NCBI GenBank assembly: GCA_963662665.2
Contig: CAXXJS010000053.1
Span: 1 to 64,000 of the forward strand
Origin: Candidatus Latescibacterota bacterium
Lineage (GTDB): Bacteria > Latescibacterota > UBA2968 > GCA-2709665
Length of the DNA stretch: 64,000 nt
Direction of reading: 5' to 3'
Shown: positions 2-47,178 of the stretch, piece by piece
Numbering within the stretch: the first letter of the stretch is position 1
Layout: every line of letters starts with the position of its first letter
Translations under genes and position numbers: made by a program
The notes under the pieces: model-generated
Databases searched by the model: none
The model's input: the letters and a program-made list of their open reading frames with translations, nothing else
Told to the model about the DNA's origin: nothing

Positions 2-1213
2 GGCGCCGCGAGGGTCGTGGCCTTCGCGAAGACCTGCAGGAAAGCCTCGCTGGTCCACGTGTCAACCGCGTACGTAAGCGGACAGCGGACCGGCCGGATC
101 CCGGAGGCGCCGTTTCCACAAAATCGGAGCGTTTCGGATCTCATCAACGGAAGCCCGGCCGGATTCGACCTTCAGGACGAGATTGACGCCATTCGGGCGT
201 TCGCCCGGGAGGTGGAAGCGGCATCCAGGAAGCCCGACCTGGAGGCCGCGTTCCTGAAGCAACTCAGGCGCCAGGACCGCGGCAAACGCGTGACGGACTA
301 CCGGAAGGCGCACCAGGTCGAAGCGCTTCGGCAGCGCTGGATCCGGAAGCAACTGGTGGACGAGGGAATGCGGAGGGCGAGGCGCTGGGGCTGGAACGAC
401 AGCTACACGCTCACCAAGGCGATGGGCGAGCAGATGATCGTGAAGTCGCGTGGAGACCTTCCAACGGCCATCGTCCGTCCGTCCATCGTTGAGAGCAGTC
501 TCGAAGACCCGGAGCCGGGCTGGGTGGAGGATCTGAAAGTCGCCGATCCGCTGATCGTCCACTACGGTAAAGGCCGCCTGACGAACTTCCCTATCGATCC
601 CAAGATTGTGCTGGACATTATACCCGTGGACATGTTGAACAACGCCGTTACGGCGGTGCTTCCGCAGGTTCACGGGGCGCGGGAGATGAAGGTCTACCAC
701 GTGGCGTCGGGCTCACAGAATCCGGTGCGGGCGAGTGAAATGGTCGAACTGGTATACGGCTACTTCAAGACCTCGCCCTTGCGGGGCCGGAAAGGGCAGC
801 CCATCGAAGTCCGGCCCTGGCAGTTCATCAGCAGACGGCGGTTCTCCTGTATGGTCCTTTTGAAATACAAGCTTCCGCTGCGCCTCTTGAAGGCGGCCGT
901 TGACTATTTGCCAACCCGGTGGGTTTCCCGCTACAGGCGCCGGGTTATGGCGATGGAAGCCATACTGGTCAGGCTCGAGTCCCTGCTCGATATATATTGC
1001 GGGTATACCCATCTCGACTGCGAGTTCGAAACGGAAAATACCCGCAAGCTGTTCCAGGGGTTGAATCCGGAAGACCGGAAGGCGTTTAACTTCGACGTGA
1101 CGCGCATCGACTGGCGGGTATATATCCAGGAGATCCACATTCCCGGATTGAAACACCATGTATTGAAAGAGGGGGACGGTGCGGTTTCCGTGCTGACCGC
1201 TCAGGCCGATTGA
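2..1213 (+). CDS. Fatty acyl-CoA reductase (alcohol-forming FAR, male-sterility type), 5'-truncated by window edge
   Basis: VHVSTAYV, YTLTKAMGE (YxxxK), IVRPSIV, DIIPVD and C-terminal FNFDVTRIDW...IPGLK typical of FAR; frame open from position 2. Confidence 0.88.
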   Translation, partial: GAARVVAFAKTCRKASLVHVSTAYVSGQRTGRIPEAPFPQNRSVSDLINGSPAGFDLQDEIDAIRAFAREVEAASRKPDLEAAFLKQLRRQDRGKRVTDYRKAHQVEALRQRWIRKQLVDEGMRRARRWGWNDSYTLTKAMGEQMIVKSRGDLPTAIVRPSIVESSLEDPEPGWVEDLKVADPLIVHYGKGRLTNFPIDPKIVLDIIPVDMLNNAVTAVLPQVHGAREMKVYHVASGSQNPVRASEMVELVYGYFKTSPLRGRKGQPIEVRPWQFISRRRFSCMVLLKYKLPLRLLKAAVDYLPTRWVSRYRRRVMAMEAILVRLESLLDIYCGYTHLDCEFETENTRKLFQGLNPEDRKAFNFDVTRIDWRVYIQEIHIPGLKHHVLKEGDGAVSVLTAQAD

Positions 1214-1338
1214 CCGGGTTGCGGGAGTTCGAGGATAAGGACCGCCAACGGTCGACAATTCCCCCGACCGGGTTTGAACGGTCGAATCAAAACCACGCCC
1301 GGGCGGATGTTCGGCTCTTTTAGTGGGACCGAGGCCAA

Positions 1339-3279
1339 ATGAATCGGAATCAATCCGTTCCCATACACCGTATGTTGCTGCAGGATCCAGCCCGTCTGGC
1401 GGCCGCGTACGATGAGGCTGCCGCCGAGTTGATCGCGGCTGTCCGGCCCGAAGGCTATTTCGAGGGGTGGGCGACGGAGGATCTGACGTGGCCGGCGGGC
1501 GGCGCCGATGAGATCGGCCTCGATGGCCTGCGGAAAAGGGCGCGCATCGTGGACGCGATCTACCAGGGCGTTCCGGGGCTGCGGGACAGTCGCCTGAAGG
1601 AAGCCCACGACCACTTCGATGAACTGACGCCCGCGTATCACGAAGGCAGCCGGATTTATCTGCGCCTGCGGGATGAGTTCGTTGGCAGCGGCGCAGGAAC
1701 GGGCCAGGACTTCCTGAAACTATACCAGTCGCTGTACGTTGAGGCGCTCGCAAGGGGGGACGATTTTTCGCCCGACCTGGCGGAAACAGCGCTGGCGCAG
1801 GCCAGGATCTCACGAGTACCGCTGTCCCACGCAAGGGCCGTTGCGGAAGCGCTGCCCAGCGTTGCCACGGACGAAGATCCGCGTTGGCATGTTGAATACT
1901 CCTGCGAGGTCAATGGCAATACATGGAATGGAACCCTCCGGGAACTCCTGGAAACAGTGGCGCAGAAGACGTTGCACTACATTGCGGCCGGAGAGCTTCT
2001 CGCCACGCGCTACAACACGTACAATAACCTTGGATGGTTCGGCAGTTCGGTGTGGAAAGTGGTCGCGGAAGCCGACGTCCTGCTATGCCGGATCCAGGGT
2101 CTGGATCCCGAACACTCGGCGGCACTGAAGGCAGACGTGGACCTGGGCCGGAGCATGCTTGTGGAGTTCCTTGCCGCGCACCGGGAGGACCCCTCGCGGC
2201 TCAGGCCGGAGAATTACTGGTACGGGCAGCCGTACAGCTATCTGACGCGGGATATGATCGACCTGAGCGCCCGTATTGTGGATGGCGTGAACTCCGCGGC
2301 ACCGGAAGCGGACGGAGTGGAGGCATTGGCGCTTCCCCCGCTGCTCGCCGGTTCCCACACGGGTCGGTTTCTGGACTACGCCCACGTGGGCGTAACCGAG
2401 GAACTGACCTCCTTGAAGCGCAAGATCCGGATGTTGCGGTGGGCGAAGCGCTGCTGGAGGGTAGGAAAGCGCCGGGGCCGCATTGCGGAGGAGGATCTTG
2501 CACCGGAACTCAGGCACGAGCGGGCGTGGGAGGTCTGGCTGGATTGGTCGCGGGACACGATGGATGCGTTCGGCATCCGGCTGGAAGTGACGGTTGATCC
2601 GATGTTCCGCACCCTTGTCCGGGAAATGGACCTTTCCGGTGGGGGCCGGAAGATTCTGTTCCTGCCGTCGCACCAGAGCATGCTGGAGCATTTCGTTGTG
2701 TTTTCCGTGTTCAACGATCCCGTGTTTCTGGATGCCATGGGATGGGACCGTTCCCGCCCGGTGGTGCAGTTGGCGCGCACGGGACTGGCGAAGTCCACGT
2801 CGGTGAGGATCGGGTCCCGCGAGATCAGCATCTTCGGAATGTCGCCGGACAAATTCGACCGGATGTTCGAGACGGTGGACGGCTTCATCACCCGGGACAG
2901 CGTGGATATCTCATCCCATACGATTCCGCGCATCCTGCAGGAAATGGAACGCCGCCCCGGTGTGATCTATCCGATGGGCACAACGGCATCGTTCGACGTG
3001 CAGTTGTTTCCGCTGCAGCACGCGCTGTTCGCCAAGCTGCCCCAGGACGTCGTGATGATTCCGATTGTCTTTCGGGGCAGCCACGCGCTCTGGCCTAAGT
3101 GTCCGGCGCGCAATCTGAATATCAATCCGGGTGTGATCGAGGCGGTGATCCTGCCCCCTATGCCGGGCGAGACCACGTTGCTGCCCCGCCGCCGGTCCCT
3201 GCGAATCCAGCTGGAGGCCGCCAATCTGCTTCAAGCGGTGCATATTTCCAATCTGCTGAATCCGGAACCCTCGCAGTGA
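1339..3279 (+). CDS. Two-domain protein: unknown N-terminal region plus C-terminal glycerolipid acyltransferase (PlsC/GNPAT-like)
   Basis: LFLPSHQSMLE (block I HxxxxD/E), IYPMGT (block III-like), IPIVFRGS (block IV); located between FAR and AGPS. Confidence 0.65.
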   Translation: MNRNQSVPIHRMLLQDPARLAAAYDEAAAELIAAVRPEGYFEGWATEDLTWPAGGADEIGLDGLRKRARIVDAIYQGVPGLRDSRLKEAHDHFDELTPAYHEGSRIYLRLRDEFVGSGAGTGQDFLKLYQSLYVEALARGDDFSPDLAETALAQARISRVPLSHARAVAEALPSVATDEDPRWHVEYSCEVNGNTWNGTLRELLETVAQKTLHYIAAGELLATRYNTYNNLGWFGSSVWKVVAEADVLLCRIQGLDPEHSAALKADVDLGRSMLVEFLAAHREDPSRLRPENYWYGQPYSYLTRDMIDLSARIVDGVNSAAPEADGVEALALPPLLAGSHTGRFLDYAHVGVTEELTSLKRKIRMLRWAKRCWRVGKRRGRIAEEDLAPELRHERAWEVWLDWSRDTMDAFGIRLEVTVDPMFRTLVREMDLSGGGRKILFLPSHQSMLEHFVVFSVFNDPVFLDAMGWDRSRPVVQLARTGLAKSTSVRIGSREISIFGMSPDKFDRMFETVDGFITRDSVDISSHTIPRILQEMERRPGVIYPMGTTASFDVQLFPLQHALFAKLPQDVVMIPIVFRGSHALWPKCPARNLNINPGVIEAVILPPMPGETTLLPRRRSLRIQLEAANLLQAVHISNLLNPEPSQ

Positions 3280-3370
3280 TGCGCCTGGTCCGGACGTCCC
3301 GGGCCATCCTCATTTAATCGCCTGGCTGCATTCGACTGGCACGGCCGTTTGTGGCAATCGGGAGTACGAT

Positions 3371-5218
3371 ATGCCTGACTGGGGAGTAGCAGCGGTTGCC
3401 GTAGCCGTTATGCTTGTGTTTGCACATCTGTCGAACCGGAAACGATCCGGAAACGAACCGGATGATTTCTTCGATCTTTCCGAGGGTGAACGGTTCCCCC
3501 ACAAGTGGGGATACACGGATACACGCTTCGAGTTCGTTGGCGAACGGACGGTGAAGGTAACCGGGAGCCGGTACCCGATTTCGGGATACCGGATGCCGTT
3601 TCTGGTGGACTTTGTGGAGGACGTGCTGGGAATTGCAATCCGCAGGGAAGACTCGTACGCGGAGCGTGAGGACGTTGAAGCGCCCAGGCCGAATCTGGAT
3701 GCCGCTTTCGGCAACGCGGTGAAAGAACGGTTCAGAGACGGGCAGGTTTCGTTCGATTCCAAAACCAGGCTCGTGCACAGCCACGGACAGTTGAGCGTTG
3801 AGGAAGTGTATCGCGTGATGTACGGCGACTCGCTGCCGCGCCTGGTCGATATGGTGTTCTATCCGAAGGAAGAAGCCGAGGTCAAGGACGTCATCGACCT
3901 GGCAAATGCGCACAATGTCTGTCTGGTTCCCTATGGCGGAGGGACGAACGTGAGCGGGGCGCTGGCGTGTCCGCCCGATGAGCGGCGCACGATCGTGTCC
4001 GTGGATATGCGGCGAATGGACCGGGTGTTGTGGATCGACGAGGACAATCTCCAGGCCTGCGTCGAATCGGGCATTTCCGGAAAGGCGATGGAGCAGGCAC
4101 TCGGGGAGCGGGGGTATACGTCGGGGCACGATCCCGACAGCGTGGAATTTTCCACGATGGGCGGGTGGATCTCGACCAACGCGAGCGGGATGAAGAAGAA
4201 CCGATACGGCAATATTGAAGATATCGTGCTCGAGGCAACGCTGGTGACGCCCACCGGAGAAATTGCGACCCGCGGGGTGACGCCCCGGAATTCCACGGGC
4301 GTTCAACCCAGGGGGCTGTTGTTCGGCAGCGAGGGCAATTTCGGAATCATCACCACGGCGGTGATCAAGATCCATCCGATCCCGGAGGTACGCAGGTACG
4401 GCGCGCTTGTGTTTCCGGCGTTCGAGAAGGGCGTCGCATACCTGAAGGCGCTTCGGCGGACAGGGATGCTTCCGGCGAGCATCCGCCTGGTCAACAATAA
4501 CGAATTCCGGTTCGGTCAGGCCCTGAAACCGGAGCCGACGTCACTGAAAGGCGTCAAGGAACGGATTCAAAAGTTTGTACTGTTGAAGGTGCTGGGATTC
4601 GATCCGATGAAGATGGCGGCCTGTACCATCGTGATGGAGGGCACTCACGACGAGGTCAGCCAGCAGGAACGCACGATCTTCAGCCTGGCGAAAGAATACG
4701 GCGCAAAGAGCGCGGGCGCGAGCAACGGCAAGAGAGGATACTCGCTGACCTTCGGCATCGCCTATATTCGAGACTTCCTGAATCAGTACGGCATTCTGGG
4801 CGAAACCTTCGAAACGTCGGTTCCCTGGGACCGGATCCACCAGGTATGCGACGCGGTATCGGAGGAACTGTTGGCGCAGGCTGCCAGGCACGAGGTGCCG
4901 GGTAAGCCCTACCTCTCCTACAGGGTAACGCAGACCTATCATACCGGCGTCTGCATCTATTTTACCATGGGCATTTGCGGCAAGGGTCTGGAACGGCCCG
5001 GCCGGACGTTCCACGCGATCGAACACCGGTTGCGCCAGGTAATACTCGACAACGGGGGGTCGTTGTCGCACCATCACGGCGTTGGAAAGGTCAGGCGGGA
5101 ATTCCTGCCCCAGATACAGACCGATAACAGCATTCAGGTTATGCGCCAGGCGAAGAACGCGATGGATCCGAATAATATCTTCGGGATAAGGAATGGAGTG
5201 TTTGGGGGATCAGACTGA
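3371..5218 (+). CDS. Alkyl-dihydroxyacetone-phosphate synthase (AGPS-like FAD-linked enzyme)
   Basis: KWGYTDT, HSHGQ, PYGGGTNVS, GHDPDSVEFSTMGGWISTNASGMKKNRYGNIED, GSEGNFGIIT, YRVTQTY, SLSHHHGVGK closely match eukaryotic AGPS. Confidence 0.9.
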   Translation: MPDWGVAAVAVAVMLVFAHLSNRKRSGNEPDDFFDLSEGERFPHKWGYTDTRFEFVGERTVKVTGSRYPISGYRMPFLVDFVEDVLGIAIRREDSYAEREDVEAPRPNLDAAFGNAVKERFRDGQVSFDSKTRLVHSHGQLSVEEVYRVMYGDSLPRLVDMVFYPKEEAEVKDVIDLANAHNVCLVPYGGGTNVSGALACPPDERRTIVSVDMRRMDRVLWIDEDNLQACVESGISGKAMEQALGERGYTSGHDPDSVEFSTMGGWISTNASGMKKNRYGNIEDIVLEATLVTPTGEIATRGVTPRNSTGVQPRGLLFGSEGNFGIITTAVIKIHPIPEVRRYGALVFPAFEKGVAYLKALRRTGMLPASIRLVNNNEFRFGQALKPEPTSLKGVKERIQKFVLLKVLGFDPMKMAACTIVMEGTHDEVSQQERTIFSLAKEYGAKSAGASNGKRGYSLTFGIAYIRDFLNQYGILGETFETSVPWDRIHQVCDAVSEELLAQAARHEVPGKPYLSYRVTQTYHTGVCIYFTMGICGKGLERPGRTFHAIEHRLRQVILDNGGSLSHHHGVGKVRREFLPQIQTDNSIQVMRQAKNAMDPNNIFGIRNGVFGGSD

Positions 5219-5443
5219 CGAGAAAATCTAGAAAAACCCCCCATGCCACAACCGGGCGTGCGCAAGGTAGACCCGGAAGGACCGTCGCGGGGATATGCGA
5301 CCATACCGCCTTTCGTTGTTTGCTTTGTGTCGCGCCTCCGTTGCATTTGTAGGGGCAACCCTTGTTTTGGTTGTTTCCGGTTTCCCTTTGTGTCTTCGTG
5401 CCTTTGTGTGAGCAGAAGTTTTATCTGACCTGAAGGGTCGCGT

Positions 5444-6250
5444 ATGTTCCAGGGAAAAGTCGTTGCGATAACAGGCGCGTCATCCGGTCTGGGTGCCACG
5501 CTGGCGCTGGCGTTCGCGGAGGAAGGCGCGGATCTGGCGTTGTTTGCGCTGGACGACGGCGTACATGAGACGGCGGAAGCGTGCCGCGAGCGGGGCAGCC
5601 GCGCCATTACGGCAACGGGTGACGTAGGAAAACCGGAGGACTGCGAGGGTTGGATCGACGCCGCTGTTTCCGAATTGGGTGGTCTGGACTACCTGGTTGC
5701 CTGCGCCGGTATCAGCATGTGGGCACGGTTTGAAGAGGTGGAGGACCTGGCGATCTTCAGGAAGTTGATGGAAACGAACTATCTGGGTATCGTGCATTGC
5801 GTGTATTACGCGCTGCCCCACCTGAAGGCGCGCGACGGGATGGTTGTGGCGATTTCCTCCATCCAGGGCAAGATCGGCGTGCCCTTGCACACCGGATACG
5901 TGGCTTCCAAGCACGCCGTCCAGGGATTCTTCGAGTCGTTGCGAACGGAATTGCTCGATACCGGCGTGGACGTGATGACGGTGCTGCCCCACTGGCTGCG
6001 GGGGACCAACCTCCGCAAGGCTGCGTTCGGCAAGCACGGCGGCTCTCTTGGCGGGTCGAGCCGAAAACACAGCAAGGAGTCCATATCGCTGGACGACGCA
6101 TCCAGGGCCATCATCAAAGCCATGAGAAAGAGGAAGCGGGAACTGATTATCCCGTTCAAACTCAGATTTCTGCCCTGGCTGCATCTGATCAGTCCGAAGA
6201 TTGTCGAATATCTGGTAACGCGCGGGGTGGCCAGGCAGGATAAGGGATGA
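5444..6250 (+). CDS. Short-chain dehydrogenase/reductase, DHRS7/DHRS7B-like (candidate acyl/alkyl-DHAP reductase)
   Basis: TGASSGLG, SSIQGK, YVASKHAVQGFFESLRTEL. Confidence 0.85.
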   Translation: MFQGKVVAITGASSGLGATLALAFAEEGADLALFALDDGVHETAEACRERGSRAITATGDVGKPEDCEGWIDAAVSELGGLDYLVACAGISMWARFEEVEDLAIFRKLMETNYLGIVHCVYYALPHLKARDGMVVAISSIQGKIGVPLHTGYVASKHAVQGFFESLRTELLDTGVDVMTVLPHWLRGTNLRKAAFGKHGGSLGGSSRKHSKESISLDDASRAIIKAMRKRKRELIIPFKLRFLPWLHLISPKIVEYLVTRGVARQDKG

Positions 6251-10804: not shown

Positions 10805-10886
10805 ACCGACTCCTTTCGCGCAACGTAGAGCGGGCCGAATTCGGTTCCGGCCGGATTCCTTCATGCTGAAACGTGGCGGGTGATTC

Positions 10887-11951
10887 TCAGAAATAGCGGA
10901 TATTGCGGCCGCCGTCCCGCAGCGGCAGGTCGACCGAACGGTGTTCCGCCGCGGCGCGATTCCAGGCCAGGCAGAGTTCCAGCACGTTTCGGGCGTGTTC
11001 CGGCGTCACGTCCAGGGGATGGCCGTCCCGGACGGCGTGGACGAAGCGCTCTACCGCAGCGTCGATGGTGTCGTTCTGGGCGCGGTAAAACACACGGGGA
11101 GCGCCCTTGTCGTCCTTGTGCCAGACAATGCCTTCCATCATATCCAGATGCGCGCGGGCGATGCCCTCGGTGCCCACCACTTCCATTTCCCATGCCGGGG
11201 CGCCGCAACTGACGTTGAAGATGATGTCCATGGAACCCATACGCCCGTCTTCGAACCGGACGGTTCCCTTGCCTGTGTCCATCCAGATGCTGTGCGGGGT
11301 GGCCAGGTTGTCGTATTCGGCATAGGCGCGGACAGCTCTTGAATCGATGAGCCAGAGCAGCAGGTCCGCGGCGTAGACGCCCAGCGAAAGCCCGATGCCA
11401 CCCTGTTCCGGGCCGAATTCCCCGCTGCCGTCGAAGATCATTCCGGGGCCGAAACAGCCGTGTTGGATCCAGGCCCTCGCGGTGATGACGCGTCCGACGG
11501 CGCCTTCCTGAACCCGTGTTCCCATCGCGCGGATGGCGCCGTCTTCCCGTCCGGGCAACAGGGCGGACAACCGCACGTTGTTGCGCCCGGCCGCGGCGAT
11601 CATCGCGTCGGCGCCGGCGAGAGTCATACACATGGGTTTGCTGATGAACGCGTGGGCGCCCGCGTCCATTGCGTTGGCCGCCTGCTCCGGTTTCAGGCTG
11701 TCCGGGCATGTAACGAAGACAAGGTCCAGGGACTCGGCGCGAACCATCTCGGTCACTGTAGAATACGCCCGGATGCCGTATTGGGCGCCGAATGTCTCTT
11801 TGGACTTCATACCGAGACTGCCGAGCGTTTCGTCGCTCTGATCCAGATGGGCGTACGCCGCCAGTTCGATATCGGGGTTCCGATTCGCGGTTCGGGCAAA
11901 CGCGTTCGAGTAGAAGGATCCGATGCCGCATACGCCCGCTTTCAGCGACAT
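10887..11951 (-). CDS. Gfo/Idh/MocA family oxidoreductase
   Basis: GVCGIG Rossmann start, AFISKPM motif. Confidence 0.85.
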   Translation of the reverse strand: MSLKAGVCGIGSFYSNAFARTANRNPDIELAAYAHLDQSDETLGSLGMKSKETFGAQYGIRAYSTVTEMVRAESLDLVFVTCPDSLKPEQAANAMDAGAHAFISKPMCMTLAGADAMIAAAGRNNVRLSALLPGREDGAIRAMGTRVQEGAVGRVITARAWIQHGCFGPGMIFDGSGEFGPEQGGIGLSLGVYAADLLLWLIDSRAVRAYAEYDNLATPHSIWMDTGKGTVRFEDGRMGSMDIIFNVSCGAPAWEMEVVGTEGIARAHLDMMEGIVWHKDDKGAPRVFYRAQNDTIDAAVERFVHAVRDGHPLDVTPEHARNVLELCLAWNRAAAEHRSVDLPLRDGGRNIRYF

Positions 11952-12169
11952 AATTTCGAGTTCCCCATTGTTGGTGATTGATGGCGCGGATTAACCGGCT
12001 TGACGATCTGCGAATCCCCGCCCGCGCCATGCGCGGCGCCGGGATTCGCGGGAGGGTATTCATGCCAAAAACAGGGGCATTGTCAAGCGCAATCGTACGC
12101 GCACGTGGTTTTGCAGGTTTGCAGGGAATCACCGCGCATTCGGCAGATAAAATGTCATCGGGAGGTTGA

Positions 12170-13612
12170 ATGAGCGCTGTTGAAGCAGGAATACGGCTGG
12201 ATGTGTCGGACGGGGCGCGTTTGCTTGCCGGCCATTCGTCGTCTATAAGGGAAATCGACAATCGCCTGCGCGAAATCCATGAGCTGTTTTCTCTGGAGGG
12301 TGCGCTCCCGACCCATACTCTTGCGCGTTACGGACGCGCCTGGACGCGCAGCCATCTGCAGGAAGGGGACCTCAGACAGGTGGTCGACCTCGCGGACCGC
12401 GCCAGGGAGGAATGCGCCGTGCTGGTTACGATCGGCATTGGAGGGTCCGACCTTGGTGCGCGGGTCTTCCACGACGTACTCAACCCCGCCTACCACAATC
12501 TCCTGTCCGCGGATGAACGCGGGGGGGCGCCGGAAGTCTACTTCGCGGGGGATACGTTCGACCCACGCCGGCTCCGGGCGTTGCTGGACATGCTGACCCG
12601 GCGTGGATTAATGGACAGGACCCTGTTCAACGTGGTCAGCAAATCAGGGCGAACGGGCGAGACCATCAGCGCGTTGATGGTCGTCCGTGACTGGTTATCG
12701 CGGTACATGCCTCGCAGCACGAAAGACTGGCGTAGCCACATTGTAGCGACAACCGGACCGGACGCGCAAAGCGCGCTCTATAAATTGCACAGGCACAAGG
12801 CATTCTACGGCGATGCGCCGTTGCCCGTTCCCGAGGGCGTCGGAGGAAGGTTTTCGGCGTTCTCGCCCGTGGGGACGTTCTTACTTGCGATGACGGCTGG
12901 CACGGAGACGTCCACCGGAACGCGCGTACAGGAAGTGCTGGACGGGGCGCGTTGGGCACACGCGCGCTGGGCTCTGGACTGGCAGGAAGAACGAAATATC
13001 GCCTGGCGCCTCGCCCGGTGGCTGCACGTCCATGAACGTTGCGGCGGGAAGCAGGCGCTGGTATTCTACAACTACGCGGACAATCGCCGGCCTGGAGACT
13101 GGTTCCAGCAGCTTTACGACGAGTCGCTGCAGGAGCGCGGATCCGGCCTTCACGTCGTTCCCGCCACCGGACCCGCCGGCAACCATTCCGTTCTGAACGG
13201 GATCGTCGGCGGTCGTGCGGACCGGGCCGTCCTGTTCGTGCATTGGGAAGATCTGGGGCGCGATGCGAAAATTCCGGAAGGTGCGGAGATCGGAGGCGAG
13301 ATGGCGGCATTCGGGGGTCTCCGGATGAGCCAGGCGCAATTGGCGTCGTTTTGCGGTGCGGCACGGGACTTTACCGCACGTGGGATTCCGGTTGCGACGC
13401 TGCACGTGGCCAGACGGGACGAGAGGCATCTTGGCGCGCTGATGCGCGTGCTGATGGATGCGGTCGCGGTTAAGGGGCGGCTGCAGGGCCTGCACGTCAA
13501 CGATGACGGAGAGATCGATCCGGCCGGCGATCTTACGTATTCGCAGGACGGGGTCGAAGGATACAAACTGCGAACGCGCGAACTCGCGCTTCAAATGAAA
13601 TCCCGGTGTTGA
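12170..13612 (+). CDS. pgi: Glucose-6-phosphate isomerase-like protein (divergent)
   Basis: GIGGSDLG, VSKSGRTGET, GGRFS, QQLYDES, GNHS, QDGVEGYK. Confidence 0.8.
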   Translation: MSAVEAGIRLDVSDGARLLAGHSSSIREIDNRLREIHELFSLEGALPTHTLARYGRAWTRSHLQEGDLRQVVDLADRAREECAVLVTIGIGGSDLGARVFHDVLNPAYHNLLSADERGGAPEVYFAGDTFDPRRLRALLDMLTRRGLMDRTLFNVVSKSGRTGETISALMVVRDWLSRYMPRSTKDWRSHIVATTGPDAQSALYKLHRHKAFYGDAPLPVPEGVGGRFSAFSPVGTFLLAMTAGTETSTGTRVQEVLDGARWAHARWALDWQEERNIAWRLARWLHVHERCGGKQALVFYNYADNRRPGDWFQQLYDESLQERGSGLHVVPATGPAGNHSVLNGIVGGRADRAVLFVHWEDLGRDAKIPEGAEIGGEMAAFGGLRMSQAQLASFCGAARDFTARGIPVATLHVARRDERHLGALMRVLMDAVAVKGRLQGLHVNDDGEIDPAGDLTYSQDGVEGYKLRTRELALQMKSRC

Positions 13613-23578: not shown

Positions 23579-24547
23579 TCAGGGACGATCCGAAACCGGG
23601 TATAGAGTCAGTCTTCCCTTCCTTCCCGCGCCTTCATCGGCGACGATCAGCGTGCCGTCCGCGGCGAAGGCAATGCCTTCGACCTGTCGATGCCATTTTG
23701 CAGGAAACTTTCTGACCGAAACGACCCGCCCGCCCGGCGTCATTTCCGCGATAGACGCCTGACGTGCTGCCACGATATAATAATTCCCCGACTTCGGATG
23801 CCGTTCGATTCCCGAGGGGTGAAATTTCCGGCCTTTGATGTGCCGTGAGAATTCTCTAACAGGTATCACGAAGCCTGCATCTTCAGACAGCTGTTTTCTG
23901 TCAACTGACCAGAAATATATCGACAACTTCCCCTGCATGTCAAGGCTGCGGGCGTCCTTGCACATCAGCAAGAGTCCCCGCCGGCTCCGGTCATACGTCA
24001 AACCCTCTATTTCGCAATCTCTCCCGACGCCTGTCGCGTAGACGTTAAAGAGAACGGATTCGCCGGGAGATCCCTCGCGAAACTCGAACAGCCGCCCCGA
24101 ACTGGAGACGAGGTAGATCCTGTCGTCAGTTGCGGCAATGCCCTCGAAATCGCCGGCAACCGGAAATTTCGTATCCGACAACTGGAACGACTTGACGATC
24201 GACCCGTTCCGATAGTCGATTTCGAAGACGATCGCCCGTTCGTCGTTGTGAGCCAGGAGCCTGTTGTCGACGGTCATTGCCAGACCGGAGACCTCTTCCA
24301 GTTCCCTCGGGAGCTTCCAATGCGTTGCCGTCTCGGGGTCAAGGGGATAGCTGTCGAGAGATATTCTCCGTTTCGATGCCGCGGCCGCGTCCGCCAGCGA
24401 GAGGACGCCTGAAATATCCTGATTCGTGTCTGACGGAACACCAGCGACCTCCGCGGATGCATCCGTTCCCGATCCCGCCGCCAGCATGTTGAGAAGAATG
24501 CCGAGGCCAAGGCAGTTAAGCGGAAATTTAGGTTTGATGTTCTTCAT
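23579..24547 (-). CDS. SdiA-regulated (YjiK-like) beta-propeller protein, probably exported
   Basis: LEEVSGL, HNDE, DFEGI, IEGL, PSGI, QVEGIAF...IVADEG blades; hydrophobic N-terminus. Confidence 0.75.
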   Translation of the reverse strand: MKNIKPKFPLNCLGLGILLNMLAAGSGTDASAEVAGVPSDTNQDISGVLSLADAAAASKRRISLDSYPLDPETATHWKLPRELEEVSGLAMTVDNRLLAHNDERAIVFEIDYRNGSIVKSFQLSDTKFPVAGDFEGIAATDDRIYLVSSSGRLFEFREGSPGESVLFNVYATGVGRDCEIEGLTYDRSRRGLLLMCKDARSLDMQGKLSIYFWSVDRKQLSEDAGFVIPVREFSRHIKGRKFHPSGIERHPKSGNYYIVAARQASIAEMTPGGRVVSVRKFPAKWHRQVEGIAFAADGTLIVADEGAGRKGRLTLYPVSDRP

Positions 24548-24747
24548 TTCCGATTTCGCCGTTTCGCGGGCGCCGCACACTGCCGGTTGCGCTTCTGGAT
24601 CAAGCACCTTCAGGCGGCCATGCCGTAGCGCAAATTGACATGATCATGCGCCGCCGCAGATGGGCACCCGGCCTCAGGCGGCGGCGGTGATCCTCAGCAG
24701 CTTCTTGCGGCACGGGGTCATCTGAATTTTCGAATCAAGATCAGTGG

Positions 24748-25716
24748 TTATACACTCTTTTCAGCCTCAGCTTCCGTTACTTCCACGTCTTTAATACGCT
24801 TTTTCCCCCTTTGCTCTATCTCCCCGGCAAGAGAGGGCAGATCGAAGGATTGTTTCGAAGAGACGTCATACACAACGACGACCGTTCCATCCGGGTTCTC
24901 GATTATTTCTGCTACGTCCCACTTTGCGCCAATGGACTCGAGGGTCGGGCCTGCCGCTTTCTGTGCTGCATCGACGTTTGTTGCATGCACGGCTATCCTG
25001 CAATCGGAGGAATTCCCGTTGGTGTCACCCTCAAGTTCGGACGTCTCCACCGATTTTCTGCGTGAGACAAGCTTCCAGCCCGAGAGTATAGGCGGTTGTG
25101 ATCCATAATTGGTCTTCCACACGCCCAGCGTGATGGTGACGAAAGCCAGCGATGCGATGAAAGCCACTGTCGTAAGCTGGGTACCTGCGGCCAGCCCGAT
25201 CCCGATGACCATAAACATGAAAACGGCATCCATTGTTTCTTTCAGCGTGATACGGAAACTGACGGCGGCCACGATGCCCGCCAGGCTGAACGCAAGGGCA
25301 AGACTGCCTTTAACCAGGAAGACAACCAGCGATATCGCTACCGGCATCACGAGCAGCGTGTGCGCAAACGACTGGCTGTATTTTTTGGACGGTCTCGTCC
25401 AGGCGTAGACCCACGTGATCGGAAGGGTAACCGCGAAGGAAAGAACCAGAGCGACCACAACCGGAATCGTGTGTGCCGGATCCAGAAGGCGGTTTATGCC
25501 TTCCTTGATGTTTCCAAGCGGAACTGCGGCATCGGCGCCGGAGCCGAGGGATTTCCCAACGAATATGCGTTCCCGCTCCTTGGCGACGTAGTGCAGAACT
25601 TCGGGAAAAACGTGAAAGAACGTATTGAGAATCACAAGCCACGTGATATAGTAAATAACCAGACGTACGATGATATTGTTAGACACAACATTCTCCCTCA
25701 CTGGCTGGTTCCGCAT
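24748..25716 (-). CDS. DUF4956-like membrane protein
   Basis: SLALAFSLAGIVAAVSFR...KETMDAVFMF..IGIGLAAG; several TM segments. Confidence 0.8.
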   Translation of the reverse strand: MRNQPVRENVVSNNIIVRLVIYYITWLVILNTFFHVFPEVLHYVAKERERIFVGKSLGSGADAAVPLGNIKEGINRLLDPAHTIPVVVALVLSFAVTLPITWVYAWTRPSKKYSQSFAHTLLVMPVAISLVVFLVKGSLALAFSLAGIVAAVSFRITLKETMDAVFMFMVIGIGLAAGTQLTTVAFIASLAFVTITLGVWKTNYGSQPPILSGWKLVSRRKSVETSELEGDTNGNSSDCRIAVHATNVDAAQKAAGPTLESIGAKWDVAEIIENPDGTVVVVYDVSSKQSFDLPSLAGEIEQRGKKRIKDVEVTEAEAEKSV

Positions 25717-25859
25717 CCCATATCGAGATCTGCGTATTCATTCGAAACTCCGGAAGATCGATCCTGGTGTTGGCGCCCGGACTAATGGCTTGGTCTTCTC
25801 GTGGTTGTTATCGATAGTGTTTCGGATTCTCTTCACGTGTTCCTGAGACGGCAACAGGT

Positions 25860-28580
25860 CTAGAACAGGAAACCCCCACGCAGATAAACGCCCATTAAAT
25901 CATCCCCTTTTACCAATGCCGCGCTCAAGGTGTGCCTGCGCTTCAAGAACGACAGCCAGAATCCACCACCGATACTGGTGTGCCATTTGTCCGCACTTGC
26001 AGGGTCTCCGTCGTAGAATACACGGCCGGCGTCAGCAGTACCGAACAGACCCAACTCTCCGGCCACAAGGAGCCTGACGTTGGCCAGAACGAGCCGCAAT
26101 TCGGAATTTCCATACAGGGAAGCGTCTCCGGCGAACCGGTTTTTCCGGAAGCCGCGCAGGTTGCCCCTGGAAATGCCGGTGCCAAGCGCACCGGGTCCGC
26201 CAAGAAACGCACTTTCGTAAAAGGGAAAGGACCCCCATACCTTCTTGCCTCCCGCTCGAAGCGCAAGTGTCGGGTTCGTCGGCATACGCCCGGTCAGGTA
26301 AGTACTGGCTTCCAGATCTATGTTTCCAAAGGTCGATTCCACAGTCCCGAACCCAGGGTATACGGCGCCGGCAACCCTGACCCGGAACCCCTTTGTGGAA
26401 TACAGCGGATTGTCGCGCATATCGCAGCTGAGTTCCGCCTGTGCGCCTGCCTGAGTGAAGGAACCCGTACCGTACAGGGGTTGATCGAGCGAACCGACGT
26501 ATTTCCCCTTGTTGGAACTGAGCGGTACATTTGAATACTTTATGATCGGCCCAAAGTCAACGTTTAATTTCGAGCGAAGCGACTCGATACCAACGCCGGG
26601 AACGTCTTCTTCATGGTCTTTTGCCCGGTACCCGAGCGCCGGTGCGAAAACGAAGAGTCCCTGCTCCAACTTGTAATAGGACTTCGGTTGCGAAATCTCC
26701 GTGTTGTTTCCAAACCCGTTGAATCTGAGCAGCTGGATCCCGGAGTACCCGACGTGGACCCTGGCATCGAAGGTGCGCACCGGCTGGCGAAAGTGTCCGG
26801 TATAGGAAACAAACGGCTTGACGCTTTTCGGACCGTCGAGTGCCGCAAGACCTACGGTAAAATCGTGTTGTGAAGAGAATGGGTCCTTCCGATATCCGTA
26901 ATACTGCCTGATGTGCTGTGCTCCCGCGTACACGTGCAGGTCCGGATTAACCATAAAGATCGGAAGATTCGCCGTGCGCTTGCCCCAATCCAGTGCGTAC
27001 CTGGCATTCGGCGTATGCGATCCATGCGGCCGCTGGTAAGGATGCTCTTCGATCCTCGCTCCGTTGCCCTTGACGAACCGGTTCGATCCTCGTGAATCAT
27101 AAAACCTCGTCTTAGAGGCGCCGGCGACGGATGAGTTCGTGAGCGTGTCATTTCCGCCCCCGCCATCGATGCGAACGACAATCCGCCCTTTCGTTCCCGA
27201 TATTTCGGCGCGGTCTTCTCCTCCCCGGAGGTGTATTCTGACTTCCCGGGTTTCTCCGGGATGAAACGTCCTTTGGAAATAAGGTGTCTTCCTTTCACCA
27301 CCAGCGCCCGCCATCAGGCCAATTCGGACTCTGAGATCACCGTTCGGAAGGTGCTCGCACTGGACGTATTCGTCTTTGTCGGTTGCCCATATTTCGGCCT
27401 CGCGTAAAATCAATTCATAGTAACTGGCGGCAAATTCCGGTAAAGCGTTCCGCCTTGATTTGAGGGCATCGGCCAGGGTCTTGCCAACCATCTTGTAATA
27501 CGGAGGCGGCAACTTGCTCACGGCGTCGTCGATAACCCTGTCGGTCAGACTCGCCCGAAAGGACGCCACAACCGAATCCCACGCAGCCCTGTCGAGTTCG
27601 ACCAGGAATTCGCGGTCTATTTCCCACCCGGTCAGCGTGAGACCGATTAGACTGGGATAGGTCCTCTGGAACTGAATCTGTATGGGGAATTGTCGTCTTG
27701 CCATTGCCATGGCAAGCCCTTCGAAATGGATAAAAGCCTGGTCGCGGTCCTCGGGTATCGGGAGCCAGGTATGACAATCGCCGTCCGGGAACCGCGCCCA
27801 TCTCCACTGGCCGTGATGGCGGTCCTTGTCGTTGACGAGAAAATCCATCAGTCTCGCTTTAAGAAAGGCACGGGCATCCACGCGGTTACACGGGCTTTTT
27901 TCCAGGTGTTTCATCACCTTCTCCGTGCCGCTGACCTTCCGGGAACCGGCAAAGCCGGGCGTGTCGTCCGGTCCTTCGGAAGGGTGTTCCTGCAGCATGC
28001 CAATCAGCCCGGCAAACGCCCCCCGGAATTCCCCGAGCCTGGGGTCGTCCGGAATAACGACGAGCGTATGCCCGGAATGGAGGATACCCGCGGCCTCCAT
28101 CAACGGATCGACCACGAGCGCGCCCGTCGGCAGCATCGCACAGATCAGGTCCTGCAGGACTTCGCCCACGAACGTATTTGCGATTCCGTCGGGGACCCGC
28201 CTGGTGGCATCCTTATCCAGCGAGCGAACCGTGTACCTTCGGCCGTCTTTTCCTGTAAAGTGCAGTGAGATGGATTGTCCGAACCCGCCGGTGCGAAGCG
28301 GAGTCAGGCCTCCCCCCACACTGTCCAGGTCAAGTACCGCCACCTCGACGGGGGTATTCCAGAGGTCCCGGTAATTGCTGCCGTAGAACCAGCGTTTGAA
28401 TCCGCCTGCGCGAAATCTCTCACCTGGAATCACCCTATGGGTTTTTGCTCCAGGTGGAGGAACGGATCGATGAATCCTGGCTCCCGGGGCCGGTGAATCC
28501 TTCAGAGAGGCGGAATCTGCGGGAACCGAAAAAGCCAGCACGAGCATGAGAATAAGGAGGTTCCACCTGTTGAATGACAT
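25860..28580 (-). CDS. Exported protein with N-terminal atypical-kinase-like region and C-terminal Omp85 (BamA/TamA-type) barrel
   Basis: Signal peptide at MSFNRW; GGFGQS, NDKDRHHGQW, PEDRDQAF; C-terminal LRGFRKNRFAG and terminal F. Confidence 0.7.
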   Translation of the reverse strand: MSFNRWNLLILMLVLAFSVPADSASLKDSPAPGARIHRSVPPPGAKTHRVIPGERFRAGGFKRWFYGSNYRDLWNTPVEVAVLDLDSVGGGLTPLRTGGFGQSISLHFTGKDGRRYTVRSLDKDATRRVPDGIANTFVGEVLQDLICAMLPTGALVVDPLMEAAGILHSGHTLVVIPDDPRLGEFRGAFAGLIGMLQEHPSEGPDDTPGFAGSRKVSGTEKVMKHLEKSPCNRVDARAFLKARLMDFLVNDKDRHHGQWRWARFPDGDCHTWLPIPEDRDQAFIHFEGLAMAMARRQFPIQIQFQRTYPSLIGLTLTGWEIDREFLVELDRAAWDSVVASFRASLTDRVIDDAVSKLPPPYYKMVGKTLADALKSRRNALPEFAASYYELILREAEIWATDKDEYVQCEHLPNGDLRVRIGLMAGAGGERKTPYFQRTFHPGETREVRIHLRGGEDRAEISGTKGRIVVRIDGGGGNDTLTNSSVAGASKTRFYDSRGSNRFVKGNGARIEEHPYQRPHGSHTPNARYALDWGKRTANLPIFMVNPDLHVYAGAQHIRQYYGYRKDPFSSQHDFTVGLAALDGPKSVKPFVSYTGHFRQPVRTFDARVHVGYSGIQLLRFNGFGNNTEISQPKSYYKLEQGLFVFAPALGYRAKDHEEDVPGVGIESLRSKLNVDFGPIIKYSNVPLSSNKGKYVGSLDQPLYGTGSFTQAGAQAELSCDMRDNPLYSTKGFRVRVAGAVYPGFGTVESTFGNIDLEASTYLTGRMPTNPTLALRAGGKKVWGSFPFYESAFLGGPGALGTGISRGNLRGFRKNRFAGDASLYGNSELRLVLANVRLLVAGELGLFGTADAGRVFYDGDPASADKWHTSIGGGFWLSFLKRRHTLSAALVKGDDLMGVYLRGGFLF

Positions 28581-28688
28581 TCTTGTCCTTTGTGATTCAG
28601 GGTGATTCGGACAACCAGACGCTGTCCGGTAAAATTCGACCCTGCACCAGTTCAACGCGCAGCGCCCCGGCATATCCCTGGACATTAG

Positions 28689-28879
28689 CCTCAATTGGAA
28701 AAAAACAACAACTCAGCGGCACTATGAGAACCCCTGAAACGGGGCGTAACGGTCGTCAAAAAGGACTTTTTTTCAGTTCACGTCCAGTGACCTGGTGTAT
28801 CCTGGTAATCTGAAGTCTAATCGCCATTATCTACTTGCATATATTCGGTTTTATCTCCCCGAAGAATTACGAATCAAGG
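28689..28879 (-). mobile_element. 191 bp MITE-like element, copy 2
   Basis: Inverted copy of 8490-8680; TTAG at 28685-28688 and 28880-28883. Confidence 0.8.
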
Positions 28880-31129
28880 TTAGAATCCGAAACCGATTGA
28901 GGCGTCAATCTTGATATCCTTCTTCTGGGTGCTCACAATATTAACGCGAATGGGTCCCAATAGCGTCGTGTTGATATAGCCTCCAACTCCGAAGCCGTGG
29001 ATAGGGGTATAATCCTTCTCCGGATTTGAACTCATATCATATAGTCCGCCCTGATAGAAAATTCCAATACCACTGCGCGGCACCGACTCCCAGAATTTAA
29101 CCTGTCTCCATACGGATATGCCGACCGATGCGAACCTGGCAACCCTCAGTTCATCCCGCTTGAGACCGACGACCGGCAATGCCGCGCTGCTGAAATGCCC
29201 CGCGCCACCTAATGGGAAGAATTCGAATACGGGAGCCGGCTCTGTCACGTAGCCTCCGATGGACGAGAAGCCCACACTCCATTGAGAGCGGGGACTGGCG
29301 AAGAACGCGAGTCGGGTTTGAATCTGCCTATGTGAAAACGTCCGGTGAATCCATTTTGCATGCGTCTGAAAATAGACGCCCTGCGTTGGCACCATCGAGT
29401 CATCACGGGTGTCGATCCCTGCAGATAGCCAGAAGCCGGGCAGAAATTCGGACGCATCGCCTATTGAACGGGCCGCATAGCGGATGCGGGCGTGCTCCAG
29501 CTGGTAACCCGCCTGAAAACCACCCCAGCTGTGAAACAATGCCTGCAATCCAAGTCGTGAGCGAAAACGTCTTTCCTCGTACCCGCCGTCACGCTGCCGA
29601 TTTCGAAAATACAAACGTTCCTGGTCCCAGGTCTGGACCTCCCCCAGCAGACCCAGACGCCCGGAGGTCCGGAAAATCATGACCAGTTCAGCAAAATTCA
29701 AATTGCCCAGCAGGCCGCGAAGATGGAGTTCCGATATGCGGCCAAGTGTACTTTGGTGCGCGATTTCGCCCAGCACCGAAACCCGGTAATCGTTGTTGTA
29801 ATGAATGCCCACTTTCAACTCGCTGGGGGGGTTTTCGAGCACGTGAAAGACCAATTCGGTCTGGCCTTCATGGTAGTAAACGTGGAAATCAACCGTCTGA
29901 AACAATCCGGTGGCGTGCAACCGGCTGCACTCGTGTTCCAGTTCCTGAAACGATATCGGTTTATTGACAAACTTCTCCAGCCGTACCTTGAACAGGTCCA
30001 TGGAATAACGCTGTACGCCCTCGATCCGAACCCGGTCGATTACCACGTCCGGTGGTATGTCCGCCCACGTATTGATATCGAACGCTTCCGGCAATCTGGA
30101 CGTTCTTGATTTTCCGACGCTTCTTGGTACTCCAATCGTCTGCAATGCCGTCCAGATCGTGTCCAATTCCTTTTCAGTTGCCTGTTCACCAATCGGAATC
30201 AGGGTATACGACCGATTGAAATCGCTTCCATCGAAGTTGTGCAGTTCGGGCAATATCAACACATGGGAGCGCTTTCGGTTTTCGATTTTTCTTTCTTCTA
30301 TTCGAAAACTGACGGCCTGATCGATGACGTCGATAATATCCTGAATTTCTTCTTTTAAAGTACGCAGGGGCGTGGCGCAGTCCACGGCAATGACAAAATC
30401 GGCGCCAGCGTCCAATGCAACGTCCACCGGCAGATTATTGACGATGCCGCCATCCACGAGGTGGGTATGTTCCGTACTGAGCGGCGCAAATACCCCGGGA
30501 ACGGAAATACTGGCCCTGATCGCAGAGCCGAGAGAGCCGTTATCGATCACGACCTGTTCTCCGGAAAGAATATCGGTCGCAATTGCCCGAAAGGGCGTTG
30601 GAAGTTGATCGAAGTCGTTGCGCGCCCTGTAGGTTGCGCCAATGGTCAGTTGATTGAGGAATTGATGGATCTTTTGTCCGGCAAAGATCCCGTAAGGCAG
30701 TTTCAGTTTCAGTTCCTCAAGATGCAACGCGAACATCTGACGGTCGGCCATCGGTTTGCGGTTCATGTTCGACATACGGCGGTCCGGGCTGTTGCTGGTA
30801 ATCTCCCACCAGTCGGTTTCCAGGATCACCCGCTGGAGATCGTCTACTGAATATCCCGCGGCGTACAGGCCTCCGACCAGAGCGCCGTAACTAACCCCCA
30901 CAATCATATCTATAGGTACGCCTTCGCGCTCCAATACGCGCAACACGCCGATGTGGGCGCCGCCGCGCGCGCCGCCGCCGCTCAGTACAAGCGCGACCTT
31001 TGGCCGCTGTTCAGCAAACGATGGAAGCGCGCTGAATAGGGTGAAAAAGAAACACAGAAACGACATGCTCCGGACAAATGGACGCTGAACGATTCCCCAC
31101 TTTTTCGCCTGTGTTCTCTTGCCCGTCAT
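28880..31129 (-). CDS. Patatin-like phospholipase with POTRA and Omp85 barrel (PlpD / type Vd-like)
   Basis: Signal peptide, LSGGGARG, GVSYG (GxSxG), DGG, C-terminal GPIRV...IGFGF. Confidence 0.88.
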   Translation of the reverse strand: MTGKRTQAKKWGIVQRPFVRSMSFLCFFFTLFSALPSFAEQRPKVALVLSGGGARGGAHIGVLRVLEREGVPIDMIVGVSYGALVGGLYAAGYSVDDLQRVILETDWWEITSNSPDRRMSNMNRKPMADRQMFALHLEELKLKLPYGIFAGQKIHQFLNQLTIGATYRARNDFDQLPTPFRAIATDILSGEQVVIDNGSLGSAIRASISVPGVFAPLSTEHTHLVDGGIVNNLPVDVALDAGADFVIAVDCATPLRTLKEEIQDIIDVIDQAVSFRIEERKIENRKRSHVLILPELHNFDGSDFNRSYTLIPIGEQATEKELDTIWTALQTIGVPRSVGKSRTSRLPEAFDINTWADIPPDVVIDRVRIEGVQRYSMDLFKVRLEKFVNKPISFQELEHECSRLHATGLFQTVDFHVYYHEGQTELVFHVLENPPSELKVGIHYNNDYRVSVLGEIAHQSTLGRISELHLRGLLGNLNFAELVMIFRTSGRLGLLGEVQTWDQERLYFRNRQRDGGYEERRFRSRLGLQALFHSWGGFQAGYQLEHARIRYAARSIGDASEFLPGFWLSAGIDTRDDSMVPTQGVYFQTHAKWIHRTFSHRQIQTRLAFFASPRSQWSVGFSSIGGYVTEPAPVFEFFPLGGAGHFSSAALPVVGLKRDELRVARFASVGISVWRQVKFWESVPRSGIGIFYQGGLYDMSSNPEKDYTPIHGFGVGGYINTTLLGPIRVNIVSTQKKDIKIDASIGFGF

Positions 31130-31688
31130 CTGGTTCCCTGATTAAGAGGGGTTTTGCCGATTCTTGAGTCACCCATTGCAATAACAATACGGGTTTTTCA
31201 GCGTGCCGTGGTAAGACGTGCATCGTATGGGGTTAGACGGTCATGCGGTCAATGCCGCTCCGGCACGCCCGACATTGGACGCGGGCAGGACGGAAGCGAC
31301 CGGATCGTGGACACAGACAGCGAGACCTTCAATGGATTCGATAGAGCGCATTGTAGCGCCTGCGTGGCGAGCTTGAAGGACGATACGTGAATGGGCGATG
31401 AGCAGGCCAAAAGATAAAATCCCTTGCATTTGGGAGAAACGAAGCCCGATATATTCATCAGGGATAGAATCACGTTAAAATACCTGTAATGTCAAGTCTG
31501 AAGGCTTGTCCTCTTGTGCAAGACTTGCCCTGGATTCCACTTTCTTGTGATTATTGGCCTGATGGTATCGATATCATGTCTTTTTTATGGGAAACTCGAC
31601 AGGATCGAAGGGCTGGAATTACGTCCCGGGTTTACCGCCAGCGGAGTCCGGGCGGCTGATTCATCCCGCCTCGCAACGTTTGATGCAC

Positions 31689-31925
31689 TTAGCCTGTCGA
31701 AGTGCCTTTACTGACTGTCGTGATGCTGTGGAAACGGCTTCTTGAAACGTGGTCATTGAGCTTGTCGAAATGCCCGCGTTTCGTACTGTTGGGTGTTCTT
31801 CAACGCCCATCGCCGACCCTTCGACAAGCTCAGGGAGCGGCTTAGGGCTCAGGCGCCGGTTCTTGAGCCTGCCGAAGGCGTCGCCCTGAGCCTGTCGAAA
31901 GGATGCCAACCTGTCGACTCGACGG
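31689..31925. repeat. Cluster of CCCTGAGCYTGTCGAAGG-type REP-like repeats
   Basis: Several direct and inverted units (tgagcttgtcgaa, ccttcgacaagctcaggg, ccctgagcctgtcgaa); degenerate relatives at 61373-61436. Confidence 0.65.
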
Positions 31926-32021
31926 CCTAATTGAGACTATCCATTTCGGGGACAAAACACTGGTTCAAGGAGTCAGACCGGCCATTCGACGAACCCGATG
32001 ATTTTCGTAAGGAGGTATGAC

Positions 32022-46246: not shown

Positions 46247-46523
46247 GTTGGAATTGGGCCTTACTGAATTCTGGATGAAGTGCGAGTTCGTTCCAAGCTT
46301 GCCCGCATCGCCCTTTTTTGGATTTCCAGCTCGGTAGAGTAACCCCGCTGTTCCATCGTTAGTGATTTATTGGTTAGACAACTTGCCCTTGGAAACCAGT
46401 GGACGTTGTAAAGGGCGAAGGGGCCGTGAAGACAAAGAGCCGTGGGTCGCGCCGGTAGAATTGTATGCAAGAAGTCTTAGCGAAGGTGTCCGCTACACAA
46501 CGCATCCATGGAGACACGATACG

Positions 46524-46950: not shown

Positions 46951-47070
46951 CAAGGGTTAGCCCGTTTGGTCCCTACTGCGCCTTCCATTTCTCGCCACTT
47001 GGACTACCTTCAAAAATCCTATTGTCTGAGACAGGATCGTCTGTTCTTCACGTCGTCAGTATGCCCACCA

Positions 47071-47099: not shown

Positions 47100-47178
47100 C
47101 CGTTATCACCATATCTTGCCACCGTAGACAGCGATCGTGCGTTCAGTTTTGCCGTAATCTCAATGAAAGGGTATTGTA

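Follow-up and report, generated by a model that had tools for sequence, protein, structure and literature searches.

Ether lipids serve as biomarkers in sediments, sponges and water columns, but little is known about which bacteria make them and by what pathways. Does the start of contig CAXXJS010000053.1 (C53), from a Candidatus Latescibacterota bacterium, encode such a pathway and, if so, does it belong to the core synthesis of membrane lipids or to an accessory route? The window analysed here is the first 64 kb of this contig; the assembly (GCA_963662665.2) comprises 4.86 Mb in 66 contigs. Four open reading frames (ORFs) on the + strand, located at 2-1213, 1339-3279, 3371-5218 and 5444-6250, span positions 2-6250 and are separated by gaps of 125, 91 and 225 bp. 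The four genes encode a predicted alcohol-forming fatty acyl-CoA reductase (FAR; ORF1), a putative acyltransferase (ORF2), a predicted alkylglycerone-phosphate synthase (AGPS; ORF3) and a short-chain dehydrogenase/reductase (SDR; ORF4), respectively, and their co-directional arrangement, reported in an earlier note on this DNA, was confirmed. Their order, strand and spacing are read as a putative operon, which probably serves the dihydroxyacetone phosphate (DHAP), or AGPS-type, route to 1-O-alkyl glycerolipids; its most likely product is 1-O-alkyl-glycerol-3-phosphate.

The gene at 3371-5218 (+, 615 amino acids) encodes a two-domain flavoprotein containing PF01565 (FAD_binding_4, E = 2.3e-38) and PF02913 (FAD-oxidase_C, E = 1.3e-36). 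ORF3 aligns with guinea-pig AGPS (4bby) over residues 45-608, including the AGPS-specific N-terminal part, with a score of 508.6 bits (E = 2.2e-151), and with Dictyostelium AGPS (2uuu) with a score of 288 bits (E = 1.3e-84). The next-best family is D-lactate dehydrogenase (93.6 bits, E = 1e-25), and the NCBIfam GlcD model, which has a cut-off of 568 bits, yields only 168. The earlier note had named a grouping with D-lactate/glycolate oxidases as the outcome that would overturn its reading; identity as GlcD or D-lactate dehydrogenase was rejected, with 508 bits to AGPS versus 93.6 bits. The HHH motif that the note had described is intact (H567-H569, positions 5069-5077), and H567-H569, R372, T520 and Y530 of ORF3 align with H615-H617, R419, T568 and Y578 of the guinea-pig enzyme, respectively. 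The 4bca sequence departs from the wild type precisely at the tyrosine (Y578) that matches Y530. In the structural literature on AGPS, catalytic roles are given to the HHH loop, the tyrosine and the active-site arginine. The assignment of ORF3 as a predicted AGPS (EC 2.5.1.26) is secure on sequence grounds. Its N-terminus is hydrophobic (residues 3-22, Kyte-Doolittle value 1.76) and may act as a membrane anchor.

The gene at 2-1213 (+) encodes the C-terminal 403 amino acids of a FAR containing PF07993 (NAD_binding_4, E = 1.7e-29, profile positions 115-257) and PF03015 ('Sterile', E = 3.5e-15), with the YxxxK active-site motif reading YTLTK at residue 135. ORF1 begins at position 115 of the PF07993 profile because the window begins at the start of the contig. 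The orthologue at the locus of a close relative (L009) is a full FAR of 544 amino acids. The 403 residues of ORF1 are 88% identical to the corresponding part of this protein, which puts the loss at the N-terminus of ORF1 at about 141 amino acids. The glycine motif of the family falls in this lost part and reads TGATGFLAK in L009, whose FAR carries both Pfam domains and matches the solved FAR 7eoz (E = 2.3e-89). The missing N-terminus was looked for on the other contigs of the same assembly and none was found; the sequence beyond the contig edge, which the earlier note had wished to see, was thus seen in the relative but not in the source genome. In L009, the FAR gene is preceded by a divergent DNA methylase gene that adjoins a transposase-like gene, which marks the FAR gene as the start of the cluster. 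The FAR assignment made in the note stands, and ORF1 is securely predicted to be an alcohol-forming fatty acyl-CoA reductase of the 'male sterility' family.

The gene at 5444-6250 (+, 268 amino acids) encodes a classical SDR that matches PF00106 (E = 1.1e-44) and contains the motifs TGASSGLG and YVASK. ORF4 passes the NCBIfam model NF004825 (284 bits, cut-off 215), the name of which is generic only. The closest solved proteins are clavaldehyde dehydrogenase and 11-beta-HSD1 (E = 1e-25 to 1e-23), and its ESM Atlas neighbours are unnamed bacterial SDR clusters. AGPS is far more widespread than the ORF2 family, with at least 536 confirmed stretches, and titles among the matches listed include Latescibacterota, Poribacteria, Neomarinimicrobiota, Gammaproteobacteria, Planctomycetota, Acidobacteriota, Chloroflexota and others. 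In 61 of the 78 AGPS loci taken from these stretches, an SDR gene lies directly downstream on the same strand, with a median gap of 137 bp, and five loci are cut. Twelve loci have room for an SDR gene and lack it; nine of these are Chloroflexota-titled (lineages included), two Planctomycetota-titled and one Latescibacterota-titled. In five genomes where the acyltransferase gene stands alone, AGPS is found elsewhere, and it is followed by the SDR gene in all four whose AGPS loci were inspected. No SDR orthologue was found in the AGPS-less genomes G008, G105, G113 and G141; in one of the four, only a generic SDR with 35% identity was seen. AGPS and SDR are thus coupled by adjacency, by retention of the pair when FAR and the acyltransferase are elsewhere and by joint loss. 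The adjacency and co-loss with AGPS support ORF4 as a candidate acyl/alkyl-DHAP reductase.

The gene at 1339-3279 (+) encodes a protein of 646 amino acids that standard searches fail to place. ORF2 gave no match to Pfam, even at E = 10, and none to the PDB sequences when used as a single sequence; a profile of its 42-sequence family gave only noise against the PDB sequences (E = 0.33 or worse). An AlphaFold2 model built on the 42-sequence alignment has a predicted local distance difference test (pLDDT) score of 87.2 and a predicted template modelling (pTM) score of 0.90. Residues 1-355 (1339-2403) form an almost wholly helical domain, and residues 356-646 (2404-3279) form a domain with the PlsC/GPAT, or lysophospholipid acyltransferase (LPLAT), fold, where GPAT denotes glycerol-3-phosphate (G3P) acyltransferase. 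With VIA-align, the latter domain matches PlsC of T. maritima (5kym) with Z = 15.0 and a root-mean-square deviation of 2.9 Å over 222 of 232 residues, human GPAT1 with Z = 9.1 and squash GPAT with Z = 8.5; the top Foldseek match is also 5kym (E = 1.6e-4). A putative catalytic dyad, H445-x4-E450 (HQSMLE, 2671-2688), is positioned where the acyltransferase dyad is expected. The histidine is present in all 42 family members; of these, 33 have D and nine have E as the acid.

PF01553 is touched at E ≤ 1 by 18 of the 42 relatives, with a best value of 8.9e-8. A search of 1.84 billion representative proteins with the family profile returned 66 matches, all of them family members or fragments except two, which are marginal bona fide PF01553 proteins; this search found no fused form of the family and no match longer than 665 amino acids. 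The structure matches of the N-terminal domain were distrusted, being helical bundles only with Z ≤ 9, including the C-terminal domains of acyl-CoA dehydrogenases (Z = 6-7), and an ESM Atlas search with this domain gave no usable match. The model and alignments indicate that ORF2 has diverged very far from the rest of the PlsC/GPAT/GNPAT (PF01553) superfamily, in which it forms an isolated branch and founds a small family. The glycerolipid acyltransferase of the earlier note therefore survives in its fold and H-x4-E dyad, but ORF2 is not GNPAT-like in sequence or architecture, since it has no PF01553 match at E = 10 and its acyltransferase domain is C-terminal. The family gave 82 database clusters. 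Among species-representative genomes it accounts for 136 confirmed stretches, almost all of which bear titles of Latescibacterota or neighbouring phyla, and it is confined almost entirely to one class of Latescibacterota.

The gene order of the cluster recurs in other genomes, for which the note had suggested a synteny search. Among 80 loci holding the ORF2 family, 35 contain FAR, acyltransferase, AGPS and SDR genes in this order on one strand, down to about 48% protein identity, and the identical order led to rejection of a chance juxtaposition of the four genes. Four loci have FAR, acyltransferase and AGPS without SDR (three are cut by the locus end and L053 has room), seven have FAR and acyltransferase without AGPS (four are cut and L025, L034 and L055 have room), and 34 have the acyltransferase alone (33 with room upstream). 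FAR and acyltransferase genes are therefore adjacent in 46 of the 80 loci; AGPS-SDR is the tightest pair and FAR-acyltransferase the second. The nearest loci are titled Latescibacterota, in agreement with the view of the note that this AGPS-type cluster belongs to a non-myxobacterial host. At its 3' end, the cluster faces a bioD/bioA pair on the opposite strand in convergent orientation, so it ends at 6250.

The four-gene cluster is present in a Trueperaceae-titled record (L136, OY764543.1), and the FAR-acyltransferase pair in a Gammaproteobacteria-titled record (L055, OZ242208.1) and an Eisenbacteria-titled one (L082). Clusters under such titles reflect either horizontal transfer or mislabelled metagenome-assembled genomes (MAGs). 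In L067 (2638-11787), the acyltransferase gene is not beside a FAR gene and is flanked by several ORFs without a Pfam match, including one of 753 amino acids directly downstream.

The standard entry genes of bacterial glycerolipid synthesis were searched for in 151 evenly drawn genomes of the phylum. This sample comprises the source genome (G000), a further 114 genomes from its class and 36 genomes from other families. PlsY was found in none of the 115 genomes of the class versus 29 of the 36 genomes of other families, PlsX was found above the cut-off in one versus 33, and GpsA in none versus 29. PlsB was absent from all 151 genomes. The pattern is reversed for the ORF2-family acyltransferase (113/115 versus 2/36) and AGPS (107/115 versus 1/36). 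The positive controls for PlsY, PlsX, PlsB and GpsA were recovered in well-known genomes, and because of this, and because many genomes of the class are single contigs with 97-100% completeness, the absences are not assembly gaps. The sampled genomes are kin, so the absence pattern represents one or a few evolutionary events and not 115 independent observations. PlsY, PlsX and PlsB were also searched for in the source genome itself, and none was found; its sole canonical PF01553 gene encodes a PlsC-sized protein of 250 amino acids and lies between cmk and rpsA. The only genome outside the class with the acyltransferase, AGPS and SDR cluster (G025, contig C112, identical to the 7.1-kb locus L041) also contains PlsX, PlsY and GpsA, and it is possible, given the short contig, that this cluster was mis-binned.

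In the absence of PlsB, PlsX/PlsY and GpsA, the first acylation needs another enzyme, and the ORF2 family is the sole candidate seen. ORF2 is probably the only sn-1 acyltransferase of the cell, and as the sole candidate for this step it would make the operon a part of core membrane-lipid synthesis and not an accessory pathway. The proposed pathway consists of five steps. In the first step, FAR would reduce fatty acyl-CoA to fatty alcohol, as judged by homology. In the second step, the 646-residue acyltransferase would acylate the backbone, most likely DHAP, to 1-acyl-DHAP. AGPS would then exchange the acyl group for the alcohol with formation of the ether bond, giving 1-O-alkyl-DHAP, a step suggested by strong homology and the conserved catalytic residues. 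In the fourth step, the SDR would reduce the keto group to yield 1-O-alkyl-sn-glycerol-3-phosphate and probably would also convert acyl-DHAP to lysophosphatidic acid, as its gene linkage suggests. The single canonical PlsC-type enzyme of the genome would finally acylate the sn-2 position. The acyltransferase and reductase steps are drawn from fold and comparative genomics only. Many members of the class have neither GpsA nor a true glycerol kinase, which favours DHAP as the acceptor, as does the adjacency to FAR. On this reading, the acyl chain would be attached first and the AGPS-linked SDR would generate the G3P backbone only then, an order known from the eukaryotic acyl-DHAP pathway.

A wider form of this proposal can be put forward only tentatively and is rather less likely to be right than wrong. 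It holds that the acyl-DHAP pathway has replaced GpsA together with PlsX/PlsY or PlsB across the whole class, that ORF2 is the founding member of a family of DHAP-specific or dual-specificity sn-1 acyltransferases, that the backbone becomes G3P only after acylation, and that the membranes are rich in animal-style 1-O-alkyl lipids.

Several observations weigh against the DHAP reading. The source assembly is 92% complete with 5.4% contamination. Scans for consensus promoters and terminators gave nothing above chance level, so co-transcription follows only from the arrangement of the genes. The acid of the putative dyad in ORF2 of the window is E and not D, the motif corresponding to EGTR reads MGTT, and the best structural match of the protein is PlsC, an sn-2 enzyme. 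A search for PF10520 (CarF/PEDS1) gave no match, but its control was recovered in no genome and the search is uninformative; it is on this search that alkyl (plasmanyl) lipids, and not plasmalogens, would be the expected products. A true glycerol kinase (678 bits) is encoded in the source genome, which is thus not cut off from G3P. Five genomes contain the acyltransferase without AGPS, namely G008 and four of the genus g20, in which the AGPS search gave only GlcD-like matches with 27-32% identity. G008, a genome of another family of the phylum that is 99% complete in two contigs, has an overlapping FAR-acyltransferase pair (L185, 7060-10652). It was also found to lack PlsX, PlsY, PlsB and GpsA when these were searched for. 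Since G008 has no orthologue of the SDR, its acyltransferase cannot rely on that enzyme to complete a route through acyl-DHAP; G3P or dual specificity is more in keeping with this. The retention of the ORF2 family in the absence of AGPS and SDR speaks against a strictly DHAP-specific enzyme.

The strongest alternative, which is unlikely but has to be taken seriously, is that ORF2 is a new G3P sn-1 acyltransferase that has replaced PlsB/PlsY and not a DHAP acyltransferase. In that case, a side activity of ORF2 (dual G3P/DHAP specificity) or another enzyme would supply AGPS with acyl-DHAP. Dual specificity of this kind is known from the yeast enzymes Gpt2 and Sct1. The presence of the ORF2 family in G008, G105 and G113, which have neither AGPS nor the SDR orthologue, agrees with this alternative, as do its slightly wider occurrence in the class than that of AGPS (113 versus 107 of 115 genomes), the glycerol kinase of the source genome and the 34 of 80 loci in which the gene is beside neither FAR nor AGPS. 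However, GpsA is absent from the class and glycerol kinase is found above the cut-off in only 75 of the 151 genomes, so that many members have no evident source of G3P except the reduction of acyl- or alkyl-DHAP. The adjacency of FAR and acyltransferase genes (46/80) also resembles the fusion of FAR with DHAPAT that is reported for eukaryotes and Myxococcus (PMC13012113). The balance favours DHAP or dual specificity over a pure GPAT.

It is very improbable that ORF2 is instead an AGPAT-like sn-2 acyltransferase for 1-O-alkyl-G3P, which would finish and not start the pathway. Such a role would be suggested by the structural comparison, in which the lysophosphatidate acyltransferase PlsC (Z = 15.0) ranks above the GPATs (Z = 9.1 and 8.5), and by one Joint Genome Institute (JGI) record in which a homologue is labelled 1-acyl-sn-glycerol-3-phosphate acyltransferase. 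PlsC is the smallest solved member of the fold, however, so its top score is geometric; the genome already has a canonical PlsC of 250 amino acids beside cmk, and it has no other candidate for the first acylation. Least likely of all is a role of the cluster in the synthesis of neutral or signalling lipids, such as wax esters or alkyl-diacylglycerols, and not of bulk membrane ether lipids, with FAR and acyltransferase as an alcohol-forming and alcohol-acylating unit. In its favour are the FAR-acyltransferase pairs without AGPS in G008, L025, L034 and L055 and the presence of a signalling alkyl-diacylglycerol among the Myxococcus ether lipids (PMC9131029). Against it stand the near-universal AGPS and SDR of the class, the missing PlsY, PlsX, PlsB and GpsA, and a glycerolipid LPLAT fold that is not that of a wax synthase.

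The DHAP route proposed for the window would comprise the same four chemical steps as the mammalian peroxisomal pathway (FAR1, GNPAT, AGPS and DHRS7B/PexRAP). Across some 560 residues, ORF3 and guinea-pig AGPS agree at about half of the positions and their catalytic residues align, and the FAR of the window shares both Pfam domains with its mammalian counterpart. Unlike their mammalian counterparts, the Latescibacterota genes form a cluster, and no organelle is involved. ORF2 has no detectable sequence kinship with GNPAT and shows a reversed layout, in which the helical domain precedes the acyltransferase domain, and the reductase compared with DHRS7B/PexRAP is a classical SDR. With PlsC, GPAT and PlsB (PF01553), ORF2 has in common the fold and the H-x4-D/E dyad, whereas it falls below every Pfam threshold and carries an extra helical domain of 355 residues.

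A bacterial operon joining AGPS, FAR, acyltransferase and reductase is already known from Myxococcus; it encodes AGPS, a FAR-acyltransferase and a reductase-type protein that depends on NAD(P) (PMC9131029, PMC13012113). In the window, FAR and acyltransferase are separate genes in the order FAR, acyltransferase, AGPS and SDR, the acyltransferase is from another, isolated family, and the reductase is a classical and not an extended SDR. The AGPS route of Myxococcus is minor beside ElbD. Enzymes of the ElbD type, encoded in the Myxococcus elb cluster, are absent from the window, and no ElbD-like gene was seen in its genome, which has only one strong PF07993 match; the route of the window is the AGPS one. 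Latescibacterota in which the acyltransferase stands alone (L104, 814-5103, + strand; also L100-L103) carry a protein of 1429 amino acids that combines FAR (NAD_binding_4 and Sterile), AMP-binding and PF01553 domains. Downstream of its gene come an Lgt-like gene and an SDR gene, and the protein is ElbD-like with a different domain order. This protein is probably the 'elbD hit' reported for Latescibacterota (PMC11868695, 10.64898/2026.06.23.733905).

Of 92 Latescibacterota MAGs from a Black Sea study, 67 are reported to have AGPS homologues (PMC11868695), and such homologues, together with 'elbD hits', have also been reported in sponge-associated Latescibacterota MAGs (10.64898/2026.06.23.733905). 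In one analysis, AGPS lacked phylogenetic signal (PMC13012113). These reports and the Myxococcus operon reduce the novelty that the earlier note had claimed for a eukaryote-like system of this kind in a bacterium. The literature search returned no description of an operon with these four genes, of ORF2 and its relatives as a family of their own, of AGPS paired with the SDR, or of a loss of GpsA, PlsX and PlsY in Latescibacterota; the supplementary lists of 10.64898/2026.06.23.733905 may bear on this point. The pathway logic is thus already known from animals and Myxococcus, and AGPS in Latescibacterota is already published, whereas the operon variant and the acyltransferase family are new.

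Other features were observed elsewhere in the window. The G+C content dips to 0.49 at 46000-48000, compared with about 0.60 elsewhere, and this region contains an ORF of the UPF0175 family (antitoxin-like, 46362-46790), a dCTP deaminase gene (47488-48057) and small ORFs without a Pfam match. A longer stretch of low G+C content (0.535-0.567) with reversed GC skew is located at 24000-32000. An ORF of 466 amino acids without a Pfam or NCBIfam match (10861-12261, - strand) adjoins genes encoding a BNR/Sortilin-like protein and a protein of the acetamidase/formamidase family.

With this operon, an uncultured phylum offers a compact and testable set of genes for the aerobic AGPS route. The operon also supplies a candidate bacterial alkyl-DHAP reductase and adds an acyltransferase family that is missed by current annotation. 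That the AGPS route is the main entry of the class into glycerolipid synthesis is a possibility. If the class truly lacks GpsA, PlsX, PlsY and PlsB, it would be a natural case of bacterial glycerolipid synthesis starting from DHAP, and this, if true, would bear on the fixity of the bacterial side of the 'lipid divide' and on the origin of the eukaryotic pathway.

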